DNA of 59,790 nucleotides from positions 1 through 59,790 of the forward strand of contig JBKPTC010000076.1 in assembly GCA_046735355.1 (NCBI GenBank), read 5' to 3'. This DNA is from a bacterium (GTDB lineage: Bacteria > Actinomycetota > UBA4738 > HRBIN12). Position 1 is the stretch's first letter. The number at the start of each line of letters is the position of its first letter. The notes beneath the pieces are model-generated. The model did no database searches. It saw only the letters and a program-made list of their open reading frames with translations, and was not told where the DNA came from. A program made the position numbers and the translations under genes. Of this stretch, positions 28,245 through 53,599 are shown one piece after another.

Positions 28245-29348
<1,104 letters not shown>

Positions 29349-29349
29349 C

Positions 29350-29832
29350 GTGGGGAACAAGCTTCCCCTGCACGAGCGCGCGCTCGGGCTGCTCGCCGTT
29401 CGGCCGCGCACGCGGCGCGAGCTCCACACGCGCCTGCTCCGCGCCGGGTTCGACGCCGACGAGGTCGGGGCGGAGCTCGACCGGCTCCAGCAGGTCGGGC
29501 TCGTCGACGACGTCCGGTTCGCGGCGGACTTCGTCGAGCACGCCCTCGACCGCCGGCTCGAGGGCAGGCGCTCGATCGCCTCGCGCCTCGCGGCCAAGGG
29601 CCTCGACCGGAGCCTGATCCGGGACGCGCTCGAGGCGGCGGGAGGCGACGACGAGGAGCGGCTCGAGCGGCTGGCGCGGGCCCGGGCGGGGCGGTTGGGC
29701 GGCCTCGCGCCCGACGCCGCGTACCGACGCCTCGTCTCCTTCCTGGTCCGTCGTGGGCACGAACCGTCGGCCGCTCGGGCCGTCGCGGCCCGCGTCCTTC
29801 GCTCCGACGCAGACGCCTCCGAGATGGTCTAA
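29350..29832 (+). CDS. recX: Regulatory protein RecX
   Basis: ALGLLAVRPRT..EL..RL, GLVDD.RFA, FLVRRG; follows recA. Confidence 0.9.
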   Translation: MGNKLPLHERALGLLAVRPRTRRELHTRLLRAGFDADEVGAELDRLQQVGLVDDVRFAADFVEHALDRRLEGRRSIASRLAAKGLDRSLIRDALEAAGGDDEERLERLARARAGRLGGLAPDAAYRRLVSFLVRRGHEPSAARAVAARVLRSDADASEMV

Positions 29833-29846
29833 GCCCGCCGGCCGCC

Positions 29847-29875
29847 TTGCCTGACCTGCGGGCAGGCCGTACATT
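29847..29875 (+). promoter_or_regulatory. Housekeeping-sigma promoter upstream of structured RNA/rny
   Basis: TTGCCT-17 nt-TACATT; predicted start about 29882. Confidence 0.7.
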
Positions 29876-29882
29876 GTGCGTT

Positions 29883-30057
29883 CGAGAGGCTGTTCCCACA
29901 CGATCGTTCGACCGACGATGTCCGATCACCGAATCCTTCGTACGCAGGCAGCACACCGGCGCCGGGAACGCGGGATCCCGTGGAGGGTTCCGCGGGCCTA
30001 GGCGTTTCCTCCGTCATCCGGACACACGGCCGGCCGTGGCCGTGGGAAGGCCTCTCG
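29883..30057 (+). ncRNA. Candidate ~175-nt rod-shaped RNA with central bubble (6S-like RNA or rny leader)
   Basis: End-to-end pairings: CGAGAGGC/GCCTCTCG, TTCCCAC/GTGGGAA, TGTCCG/CGGACA, GGCGCC/GGCGTT, CGCGGGATCC/GGGTTCCGCG; begins at predicted TSS. Confidence 0.55.
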
Positions 30058-30090
30058 CGACGCCTTTCCTGATGTCTGGAGGCAACACAG

Positions 30091-31623
30091 ATGGCACCCG
30101 TGATCGCCGGGGTCGTGGCCCTGGTCCTCGGGGTGGCGATCGGCTTCGTCGTCCGAAAGACGATGGCGCAGTCGCAGGCCCAGAGCGCCGAGTCGCGAGC
30201 CCAGAAGGTGGTCCTCGACGCGGAGCGCGAGGCGGAGCAGGTGGTCCGCACCGCGCTCGTCGAGGTCAAGGACGAGATCGCCGCGATGCGGCGCGAGGCC
30301 GAGGAAGAGGTTCGGATCCGGCGCGAGGAGCTGTCGCGCCAGGAGAGCCGCCTCACGCAGAAGGAGGAGAGCCTCGAGGGCAAGCTGACGGATCTCGACC
30401 GCCGCTCCCGCGAGATGGACGACCGCGACCTCCAGCTGCAGAAGGTGCGGCAGCATCTCGAGCACGCGGCGGAGCAGCATCGGCAGCGGCTCCAGACCGT
30501 CGCGCAGATGACCTCGCAGGAGGCGCGCGAGGCGCTCATGGCGCAGGTCGTCGACGAGGCCAAGCGCGCCGCGATGGCGCAGGTGCGCGAGATCGAGCAG
30601 CGAGCCCGCGAGGAGGGTGAGGAGCGCGCCCGGAAGATCGTCACGATCGCGATCCAGCGCGTCGCGTCCGAGCAGACGAGCGAGTCGACGGTGAGCGTCT
30701 TCTCGCTGCCGTCGGAGGACATGAAGGGCCGCATCATCGGCCGCGAGGGCAGGAACATCCGCTCGTTCGAGGCCGTGACCGGCGTGAACCTCATCATCGA
30801 CGACACGCCCGAGGCCGTGGTCCTCTCGTGCTTCGATCCCGTTCGTCGCGAGACCGCCCGGCTGACGCTCGAGAAGCTCGTGTCCGACGGCCGCATCCAT
30901 CCCGCTCGCATCGAGGAGACGTACGAGCGCTCGCAGAAGGAGATCGAAGAGCAGATCCGGCGCGCCGGCGAGGAGGCGGTCCTCGAGGTCGGCGTGACCG
31001 ACATGCACCCGGAGCTCATAAAGCTGCTCGGACGGCTGCAGTTCCGGACGTCGTACGGCCAGAACGTGCTCCGGCACCTGATCGAGTCGGCGCACATCGC
31101 GGCGGCCATCTCGGCTGAGCTCGGGCTGGATCCGCGCGTCCCCAGGCGCGGCGCGCTGCTCCACGACATCGGCAAGGCCGTGACGCACGAGGTCGAGGGG
31201 TCCCACGCCATCATCGGCGCCGAGATCTCACGGCGCCTCAAGGAGTCGCCGGAGGTCGTCCACTGCATCGAGTCGCATCACGGCGAGGTCGAGCAGCGGA
31301 CCGTCGAGGCCGTGATCGCGCAGATCGCGGACGGCATCTCCGGCGGACGTCCCGGCGCGCGCCGCGAGTCGCTCGAGACGTACGTCAAGCGGCTCGAGCG
31401 CCTCGAGGAGATCTGCACCAGCTATCCGGGCGTCGAGAAGGTCTACGCGATGCAGGCCGGTCGCGAGGTCCGCGTCATGGTCAAGCCGCAGGACATCGAC
31501 GACCTCTCGGCGCAGGTCATGGCGCGCGACATGGCGAAGCAGGTCGAGGAGGAGCTCCAGTACCCGGGGCAGATCAAGATCACCGTCGTCCGGGAGACGC
31601 GGTCGGTCGAGTACGCCCGGTAG
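30091..31623 (+). CDS. rny: Ribonuclease Y
   Basis: N-terminal TM, coiled coil, KH (MKGRIIGREGRNIR), HD domain (LLHDIGK), RPGARRE. Confidence 0.97.
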   Translation: MAPVIAGVVALVLGVAIGFVVRKTMAQSQAQSAESRAQKVVLDAEREAEQVVRTALVEVKDEIAAMRREAEEEVRIRREELSRQESRLTQKEESLEGKLTDLDRRSREMDDRDLQLQKVRQHLEHAAEQHRQRLQTVAQMTSQEAREALMAQVVDEAKRAAMAQVREIEQRAREEGEERARKIVTIAIQRVASEQTSESTVSVFSLPSEDMKGRIIGREGRNIRSFEAVTGVNLIIDDTPEAVVLSCFDPVRRETARLTLEKLVSDGRIHPARIEETYERSQKEIEEQIRRAGEEAVLEVGVTDMHPELIKLLGRLQFRTSYGQNVLRHLIESAHIAAAISAELGLDPRVPRRGALLHDIGKAVTHEVEGSHAIIGAEISRRLKESPEVVHCIESHHGEVEQRTVEAVIAQIADGISGGRPGARRESLETYVKRLERLEEICTSYPGVEKVYAMQAGREVRVMVKPQDIDDLSAQVMARDMAKQVEEELQYPGQIKITVVRETRSVEYAR

Positions 31624-44921: not shown

Positions 44922-44997
44922 GCGGACGTGGCTCAGCTGGTAGAGCACCACCTTGCCAAGGTGGGGGTCGCGGGTTCGAATCCCGTCGTCCGCTCCA
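44922..44997 (+). tRNA. tRNA-Gly (GCC)
   Basis: GCGGACG/CGTCCGC acceptor stem, anticodon loop TTGCCAA, GGTTCGAATCC, encoded CCA; TAGACT -10 at 44906. Confidence 0.98.
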
Positions 44998-53411: not shown

Positions 53412-53482
53412 GGCGGGGTGGCCGAGTGGTTAGGCAAGGGTCTGCAAAACCCTCTACACCGGTTCAATTCCGGTCCCCGCCT
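53412..53482 (+). tRNA. tRNA-Cys (GCA)
   Basis: GGCGGGG/CCCCGCC acceptor, loop CTGCAAA, GGTTCAATTCC; CCA not encoded. Confidence 0.97.
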
Positions 53483-53524: not shown

Positions 53525-53599
53525 GGGCGCTTAGCTCAGGGGTAGAGCGCTTCCTTGACGCGGAAGAGGTCAGAGGTTCGAATCCTCTAGCGCCCACCA
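53525..53599 (+). tRNA. tRNA-Val (GAC)
   Basis: GGGCGCT/AGCGCCC acceptor, CTTCC-TTGACGC-GGAAG arm, GGTTCGAATCC, CCA. Confidence 0.97.

Follow-up and report, generated by a model that had tools for sequence, protein, structure and literature searches.

The window analysed here, a stretch of 59,790 nucleotides (nt) of an actinobacterial genome (contig JBKPTC010000076.1), carries on its plus strand, in this order, recA (28245-29348), recX (29350-29832), a 258-nt spacer, rny (30091-31623) and a miaB-like gene. The product of recX contains the Pfam domains RecX_HTH1/2/3, and that of rny, ribonuclease Y (RNase Y), the domains RNase_Y_N, KH_1 and HD. RNase Y, the main endonuclease of messenger RNA (mRNA) decay, sets the pace of this decay in many Gram-positive bacteria. 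The Shine-Dalgarno sequence GGAGG of rny (30078-30082) and its ATG start codon (30091-30093) close the spacer on the 3' side (30078-30093). An earlier note on this DNA had described a rod-shaped RNA between recX and rny and had offered two readings, a 6S RNA or an autoregulatory leader for RNase Y. In our assessment, with a probability of about 0.78, this RNA is a conserved cis-acting, fold-switching 5' leader of the rny messenger and not a 6S RNA, and rny is the gene under its control.

The promoter proposed in the earlier note, TTGCCT (29847-29852) and TACATT (29870-29875) separated by 17 nt, was recovered on the plus strand (29847-29875), with a predicted transcription start at about 29881-29883; the recX stop codon lies 14 nt 5' of the −35 box. 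From this conserved promoter of its own, just past recX, an rny leader of about 210 nt would be transcribed. The arrangement TTG-N3, 17-nt spacer and TA-N3-T is kept in 30 of 30 relatives. A consensus promoter scan of the window made no call, because 8 of the 12 consensus positions match and the threshold was 9. Directly after the recX stop codon, an inverted repeat GCCUG..CAGGC (within GCCCGC..GCGGGC, 29833-29869) spans the −35 box and the promoter spacer. In the window it folds at −11.0 kcal/mol compared to −5.0 kcal/mol for shuffled sequences; as a conserved feature it was dropped, the mean z of the relatives being −0.53 with 5 of 30 below −1.5. A leaderless open reading frame (ORF) from the GTG just 3' of the −10 box was also rejected, because this GTG, 0-2 nt past the hexamer, would lie too near to it for a transcript start, judging from the usual promoter geometry.

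The rod of the earlier note consists of five helices with 37 pairs, all of which are standard. The best fold containing all of them has a free energy of −82.6 kcal/mol, 1.7 kcal/mol above the optimum (−84.3 kcal/mol), in which the closing stem is retained and the apical hairpin takes a different register. Together with the covariation in relatives described below, this upholds the claim of an end-to-end rod. The closing helix P1 pairs the extreme 5' end of the transcript (CGAGAGGC..UUCCCAC, 29883-29899) with GUGGGAA.GGCCUCUCG (30042-30057) and is present in both the optimum and the centroid fold; it comprises the helices 29883-29890 with 30050-30057 and 29893-29899 with 30042-30048. The second helix, P2, is formed by UGUCCG (29919-29924) and CGGACA (30019-30024), is retained in the centroid fold and overlaps with its 5' strand the start codon of a short ORF. 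The apical domain (29958-30006), supported by the folds and by the duplex test described below, consists of P2b (GGCGCC, 29958-29963, with GGCGUU, 30001-30006) around the hairpin P3 (29964-29998, including 29969-29978 with 29985-29994), for which two registers are nearly equal in energy. Between P1 and P2 lies the conserved block GAUCGUUCGAC (29902-29912, consensus CUGUUCGAC), which is complementary to the 5' arm CGAACAG of a hairpin found in relatives. The inner loop is strongly asymmetric, with about 33 versus 12 nt by the coordinates of the earlier note, and holds the reading frame. The earlier note mentions neither this frame nor the alternative fold described below. All of these elements are on the plus strand.

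For a first alignment, regions upstream of rny were taken from 30 genomes of the family. A DNA similarity search with the spacer matched only two genomes of the same genus (80% and 72% identity). The relatives found by means of RNase Y are uncultured soil assemblies designated "Actinomycetota bacterium", one of which bears the label Solirubrobacterales. The genome collection treats the clade as a class, within which the sample covers one order and families f1 to f8. Conserved blocks in the 30 relatives are the promoter, UUGAGAGG at the transcript start, CUGUUCGAC, GUGCCUGA and a G-rich hairpin, followed further 3' by CCC with a subsequent UAG, UGA or UAA and by GGCCGAACAG...CUGUUCGGCC with subsequent U's. 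The covariance model R1 was built from the 30-sequence alignment and a hand-set rod structure (193 positions, 34 pairs). RNAalifold on a plain MAFFT alignment yielded only 4 pairs, because such an alignment is not structure-aware and two folds compete.

In the window, R1 has a single full-length match at 29876-30072 on the plus strand (104.9 bits, E 6e-22), which is also the only one in the whole genome. The element occurs at one locus per genome, the sole second match being the opposite strand of the same place. It was detected in 48 of 101 genomes and 19 of 33 genera of the family, in 49 of 151 genomes of the order (f1 24/79, f2 1/3, f3 2/2, f6 9/9, f7 11/27, and f8 1/27, a partial and doubtful match) and in 54 of 151 genomes of the class sample; outside the class, one marginal match (E 0.009) was obtained among 151 sampled genomes of the phylum. 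These tallies include the unpublished genomes G041, G125 and G156 (order), G041 and G125 (class) and G041 (phylum), none of which enters the alignments or sequence arguments. The linkage to rny is strict: the element lies directly 5' of the RNase Y start in 30 of 30 rny loci of the family and in all 20 of the distant matches that were fetched, and R1 matches in rny-centred loci found by means of RNase Y are likewise directly upstream of rny.

In genera without an R1 match (leaders L075-L108), the promoter is kept (CTTGCCT..GGCCGTAGCAT), and a 5' ACGAGAGGAAC-like (GAGAGG-like) segment is, by eye, complementary to GGUCCUUCUCG just before the rny ribosome-binding site (RBS), as in L075 (GAGAAGAAC/GUUCUUCUC, also by eye). 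Several of these leaders have CCUCUCCCUG..CAGGGAGG hairpins over the RBS. As far as the sequences go, these leaders and those matched by R1 may form a wider superfamily of rny leaders. The cultured actinomycete Thermoactinospora rubra (L120) has an RNase Y 60% identical to that of the window; a motif search of its region upstream of rny was without a match, the leader not having been looked for there otherwise.

The alignment of rny-upstream regions suggested in the earlier note revealed covariation of P1 and of the other rod helices, both in pair counts and in permutation tests. Among the 68 matches aligned to R1, 56 sequences are distinct, and in these 83.1% of the cells of the 34 rod pairs are paired, compared to 33-49% when the partners are slid by 1-3 columns. 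Both sides have changed in 20 of the 34 pairs, and none of 500 shuffles reached any of five measures. Two circumstances inflate the pair counts and shuffle tests, namely the fitting of the alignment (A5) to the rod model and the relatedness of the sequences. Because of this model fitting, a duplex test was added, in which calculated duplex energies of cognate helix strands are compared with those of strands combined across sequences and which needs no structural alignment. Cognate strands of P1 paired at −19.9 kcal/mol compared to −15.7 kcal/mol for non-cognate ones, and those of P3 and P2b at −20.2 versus −16.8 and −7.2 versus −6.0 kcal/mol, respectively, with none of 5000 permutations as good in any of the three cases; the P1 result was the same on the first 30 sequences. 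For P2, which is 90% paired in the relatives, 2 of 5000 permutations were as good. The P1 variants GAGAGGC/GCCUCUC, ACGAGG/CCUCG, ACGAAGC/GCUUCGU, ACGCAAGG/CCUUGCGU and GAGAGAC/GUCUCUC are, as read from the sequences, several independent compensations, although relatedness inflates the duplex numbers. At five rod positions G-U is the most frequent pair. Read from the complementary strand, such pairs would turn into C-A mismatches, which assigns the structure to the plus strand, on which rny is encoded.

The 3' strand of P1 can also pair elsewhere. In most relatives, the optimal fold is a strong local hairpin formed by GGCCGAACAG(R)GGCC and its complement, and this complement is the P1 3' strand, so that the rod and the hairpin exclude each other. 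Although the alignment was not fitted to this hairpin, 86.6% of its cells are paired, compared to 31-55% with slid partners, and 8 of its 14 pairs have changed on both sides (at one of them, for example, AU occurs 34 and GC 17 times). A single local hairpin over both arms is predicted in 53 of the 56 leaders at −16 to −34 kcal/mol. It is followed by at least four U within 8 nt in 29 of the 56 leaders and by at least five in 19, and a terminator scan called it in L046 (14-bp stem). Family f6 has a different platform: there is no U-tract, the rod is the optimum, and in the isolated 3' part the P1 3' strand (GCCUCC...) pairs with GGAGGC of the rny RBS in 4 of 5 sequences folded.

The three leaders without the single hairpin are those of the window and of two congeners, whose 3' parts give two smaller hairpins instead. 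The 5' arm is degenerate in this genus, which has GCCGGCCG where relatives have GCCGAACAG; in the window, a small hairpin ACGGCCGGCCGUGGCCGU (30026-30043) takes the place of the relatives' arm (GGCCGAACAG...). When the 3' part of the window's leader is folded alone, this small hairpin is accompanied by a local alternative of GGGAAGGC (30044-30051) with GCCUUUCC (30062-30069), which covers 30044-30069, excludes P1, has no U-tract after it and is also predicted in both congeners (L032 and L033). For the whole leader of the window, the rod is the optimum. The copy of the window is a derived form in which the rod probably prevails, because the hairpin arm is degenerate, the rod is optimal and the local alternative is weaker in the predicted folds. 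Two further pairings were considered for the window. A forced pairing of GCCUCU (30050-30055) with GGAGGC of rny (30078-30083) costs 6.2 kcal/mol relative to the rod and was discarded. For CCUCC (30008-30012), which could cover the RBS once the 5' part is removed, no claim is made; by eye it is not intact in two leaders of the same genus.

The element thus lies between a conserved promoter and the rny RBS, on the strand of rny, with compensatory changes in its helices and, in the relatives, two mutually exclusive folds; in the window itself, the second fold is represented only by the weaker local hairpin without a U-tract. The regulatory leader considered in the earlier note is borne out by this position, by the linkage and by the covarying exclusive folds insofar as a cis-regulatory leader of rny is meant; autoregulation is weighed below as one of several inputs. 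In the proposed switch, the first ~20 nt of the transcript would pair as P1 with ~20 nt just 5' of the rny RBS and close a long irregular hairpin containing P2, P2b and P3. Alternatively, the P1 3' strand would serve as the 3' arm of the terminator-like hairpin in most relatives, or as the 5' arm of a hairpin covering the rny Shine-Dalgarno sequence in family f6. Formation of the rod would block termination in the first case or free the RBS in the second; we therefore infer that the rod is the "on" fold and the local hairpin the "off" fold, an orientation to which the coupling of one rod to two kinds of expression platform also leads.

Several points weigh against this switch or qualify it. 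In the comparison with shuffled sequences that the earlier note had called for, the folding energy of the window's copy alone turned out to be marginal (29882-30060, z = −1.97, with 5 of 200 shuffles reaching the same stability), the minus strand is no worse (z = −2.27), and z for the whole spacer is −1.08; that the rod exceeds chance is concluded because of the evidence from relatives, folding energy alone being weak. The pairing of the CUGUUCGAC block with CGAACAG is kept in 86%, barely covaries and is not significant in the duplex test (461 of 5000 permutations). The tails of 27 of the 56 hairpins contain fewer than four U. The terminator scan missed the hairpin, with its bulged stems, in L177 and L167, two of the three relatives' loci tested, and found no terminator in the window. 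The latter agrees with the statement of the earlier note that none precedes the rny RBS, a statement that does not extend to the terminator-like hairpin of most relatives. The transcript start, the 3' end and any termination are predictions. Finally, the switch may be no more than a vestige in the genus of the window, in which both the hairpin and the peptide motif described below are lost.

As an alternative, the rod could be a 6S-like RNA, that is, a trans-acting RNA whose central bubble binds the RNA polymerase (RNAP) holoenzyme and which is released from the rny transcript by termination or processing. Its size (about 180-195 nt) and the succession of closing stem, large asymmetric inner loop and apical stem would fit, its own promoter and the hairpin of the relatives could yield a discrete RNA of about 195 nt, and no canonical 6S RNA was found in the genome, so that the niche is not visibly filled. 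The search with the Rfam model of 6S RNA (RF00013), which the earlier note had recommended, gave no match at E ≤ 10 in the whole genome (95.7% complete). At the gathering score, Rfam 15 has no match in the spacer, and with all Rfam families up to E = 10 the region 29750-30200 returned no 6S RNA and nothing beyond two chance matches, one to gyrA RNA within rny and one to Mnt IRES at the promoter; six leaders of relatives matched nothing at E ≤ 1. The only matches at the gathering score in the window are three plus-strand tRNA genes (44922-44994, 53412-53482 and 53525-53596). Furthermore, the element is always fused to rny and its RBS, its inner loop is very asymmetric, and the supposed bubble contains, instead of a mimic of an open promoter, a reading frame conserved in a codon-like manner. 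Above all, the closing strand doubles as an arm of the covarying terminator-like hairpin or pairs with the rny RBS, an arrangement that is sensible only for a cis-acting switch and therefore argues for a leader and against a trans-acting RNAP decoy. Of all the readings considered, a 6S RNA is the least likely and is hardly tenable.

The signal sensed by a fold-switching rny leader might be a ligand: the inner loops and P2, P2b and P3 could bind a metabolite or a protein and thereby stabilise P1, the short ORF being incidental. The architecture is that of "on" riboswitches, with a core closed by a P1 that shares its 3' strand with the platform, and with two kinds of platform across families; unpaired blocks are conserved, and as there is no Rfam match the element would constitute a new class. 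Metabolite riboswitches usually control several genes of a pathway, whereas this element occurs once per genome and always at rny. In addition, the inner part varies greatly between families, unlike a ligand pocket, and the periodic, codon-like conservation in it would be unexpected for an aptamer. We consider a riboswitch or a protein-binding leader improbable, and a ligand a less likely input than either the translation of the short ORF or RNase Y itself.

The short ORF of the window (29918-30001, plus strand) starts with ATG, comprises 27 codons and ends with TAG. Among the 56 distinct leaders, 47 have GTG and one has ATG at the aligned start, natural variants with GCG also occurring; at the aligned stop, TAG stands in 42, TGA in 9, TAA in 4, AAG in one and TGG in none; lengths of 75, 81, 84, 87 and 90 nt dominate. 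The deduced peptides of 20-34 residues are polar and, judged by reading the sequences without a predictor, contain neither an N-terminal signal nor a membrane segment. Near the end of the ORF, 35 of 74 distinct leaders encode, at a common position, the amino acid motif R-(A/E)-G-P; the 12 nt concerned exist in 24 versions, among which nearly all differences fall on third codon positions. In controls, 3.0% of shuffled sequences and 4 of the 74 reverse complements contained the motif. The column entropies for the three codon positions are 0.88/0.78/1.84 for Arg and 0.35/0.48/1.79 for Pro. For the 17 members of the 84-nt class, the synonymous share among the codon differences within the motif stretch is 0.50, compared to 0.19 in both other frames. 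An in-frame start precedes the motif in 33 of the 35 leaders, and a stop codon follows 0-7 codons past Pro in 34 of them; the remaining one, L082, has no stop past the motif within the stretch read. In family f7, the motif lies partly inside the P3 loop, and the ORF ends are ...RWRAGP-stop, ...RWRAGPLT-stop, ...RQRAGPCR-stop and ...RRRAGPRSP-stop.

The SecM arrest motif has RAGP as its C-terminal core, and this core can support arrest in other contexts, too (PMC12992588, PMC10987492, excerpts). In YwcI of Bacillus subtilis, according to the same excerpts, RAGP brings the ribosome to a halt while the Gly codon occupies the P site (PMC12992588, PMC10987492). The RAPP-like arrest peptides described there have only a C-terminal core in common, and most are encoded upstream of sec or yidC genes (PMC10987492, PMC12992588). 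A literature search found no arrest peptide described at rny, the supplementary files of the arrest-peptide papers being outside this search.

On these grounds, the input of the switch that we favour is translation of the short ORF inside the rod, a proposal to which we give somewhat less than even odds. A ribosome on the short ORF, more so if arrested, would keep P2, P2b and P3 open, P1 would lose its scaffold, and the local "off" hairpin would win. The full form of this proposal, in which a SecM-like R-(A/E)-G-P arrest ORF in a bistable leader sets RNase Y synthesis, the arrested ribosome opening the rod in favour of the terminator or the RBS-covering hairpin, is tentative, and we regard it as rather doubtful.

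Much in the ORF itself counts against its translation or against arrest. The aligned start-to-stop frame is intact in 39 of the 56 leaders and broken in 17, and the conservation of the frame as such (41 of 56 in frame) was not used as evidence for coding, because in a rough count frame-keeping length changes were about as frequent as frame-breaking ones. The N-terminal part has no coding signal, its synonymous share being 0.077 compared to 0.089 and 0.063 in the other frames. No Shine-Dalgarno sequence precedes the GUG, and the start codon is paired within P2. Between the window and its closest relative, differences in the ORF are, by eye, mostly at codon positions 1 and 2. Among the 56 leaders, REGP occurs 21 times and RAGP five times; most members thus have REGP, not RAGP, and Glu at this site is not among the variants in the arrest-peptide passages available. 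The window has RGIP, and at the aligned place its genus has RGIP, CQNP and RGDP.

Two families show additional features at the ORF. In f6 (L171, L172, L184 and L185), the short ORF has 32-33 codons and ends with HAPSS, RAPSS, HAPSSP or HPSSS before the stop, resembling the H/R-A-P-x cores of RAPP-like peptides (PMC10987492, in part); the same bases form the P3 3' strand, and the conservation of the peptide end may, as far as the sequences tell, act at the RNA level. In two members of f7 (L167 and L170), a mini-ORF M-R-x-R-A-G-P... begins with a GUG located 5 nt downstream of GGAGG, and in L170 this GUG is the only in-frame start for the motif. In this family, the second, very short ORF may be the translated one.

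Alternatively, the short ORF could be the gene of a functional, trans-acting peptide of 20-34 residues, with the RNA structure being secondary. A conserved start, a conserved stop and an R-(A/E)-G-P core with synonymous variation would be expected from such a gene. Outside the core, the peptide lacks conservation even among members of one genus, 17 of 56 leaders have a disrupted frame, the ORF is without an RBS, and RNA helices covary across it; moreover, conservation of a C-terminal core alone is the pattern of arrest peptides (PMC10987492, in part). A small-protein gene is therefore very improbable.

RNase Y itself could control the leader by feedback, without a role of the short ORF. Cleavage in the single-stranded, less G+C-rich inner loop or near the 5' end would remove or free the P1 5' strand, whereupon the 3' strand would fold into the "off" hairpin or a 5' exonuclease would enter, so that rny expression would drop under RNase Y excess. 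A precedent is the 164-nt 5' untranslated region (UTR) of rny in B. subtilis, which is cleaved by RNase Y (PMC10303841, in part). The strict linkage of the element to rny and the burial of the transcript 5' end in P1, which is relevant to 5'-end-dependent decay, point in the same direction, as do the leaders without an R1 match, in which a 5' GAGAGG-like segment is, by eye, complementary to the stretch before the RBS. A cut made after transcription cannot decide whether a terminator forms during transcription, a decision that is at issue where the hairpin (53 of 56 leaders) is followed by at least four U (29), and the third-position variation in R-(A/E)-G-P is left unexplained. As a complete account without the ORF, feedback is a genuine possibility that falls short of even odds; as an input, judging by analogy, cleavage by RNase Y would be about as plausible as translation of the short ORF and compatible with it.

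To our knowledge, control of the RNase Y level is known only for B. subtilis, without a defined RNA structure, and our literature search found no described rny leader motif. A class of uncultured soil Actinomycetota carries in front of rny a well-defined, covarying leader with two expression platforms, which makes the control of RNase Y directly testable. For annotation, the rod is to be treated as a leader and not to be filed as 6S RNA. Should ribosomes stall on the R-(A/E)-G-P frame, the known range of RAPP-like arrest peptides would be widened to genes outside the secretion machinery, and translation status would be linked to the synthesis of the nuclease that initiates decay. Under the arrest-ORF reading, the output of RNase Y would be tied to ribosome busyness or availability, and the ribosome would act via a long-range antiterminator, not by opening an adjacent hairpin itself.

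Compared to known systems, the rny leader is a member of no curated family and absent from Rfam 15; it is a variant that combines an attenuator-type leader, an RNase leader and a RAPP-like upstream ORF. It resembles 6S RNA (RF00013) in length and overall rod shape with a large inner loop, although this loop is strongly asymmetric and holds a reading frame; it differs in that the model does not match and in its cis-linkage to the RBS, its alternative folds and the coding-like signal in the "bubble". A close counterpart is the rny 5' UTR of B. subtilis, which has its own promoter and serves to limit RNase Y synthesis; the cuts by RNase Y fall mainly within its first 50 nt, and trimming by RNase J1 follows (PMC10303841, in part). 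Both leaders are long (164 nt versus about 210 nt here) and have a sigma-A-type promoter directly upstream of rny. The 5' part of the B. subtilis leader is 76% A+U with a single stem-loop (PMC10303841, in part), whereas the leader described here is G+C-rich and highly structured, with two covarying folds. The passages of PMC10303841 available describe no conserved rod, terminator or short ORF in B. subtilis; the two leaders are set apart by description, not by sequence.

RAPP-like and SecM-type peptides resemble the product of the short ORF in being encoded immediately upstream of the regulated gene and in having a variable N-terminus with a core only near the C-terminus, here RAGP in some leaders and REGP in most. 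The known RAPP-like peptides are located mostly upstream of secA, secDF and yidC, an exception being YwcI upstream of sacT, and their N-termini are localization signals (PMC10987492, PMC12992588, excerpts). The ORF of the rny leader has no localization signal by reading and no Shine-Dalgarno sequence, it precedes an RNase gene, and it is embedded in a covarying switch; stalling is only predicted from the motif, which the copy in the window does not have.

Like attenuators and "on" riboswitches, the leader uses the 3' strand of its closing helix also in a terminator or an RBS-covering hairpin, and lineages differ in the platform. It departs from them in being present as a single copy per genome at rny, without an Rfam match, and in the nature of its antiterminator, which here would be the entire leader, folded so that its very 5' end pairs with the terminator region about 150 nt away.

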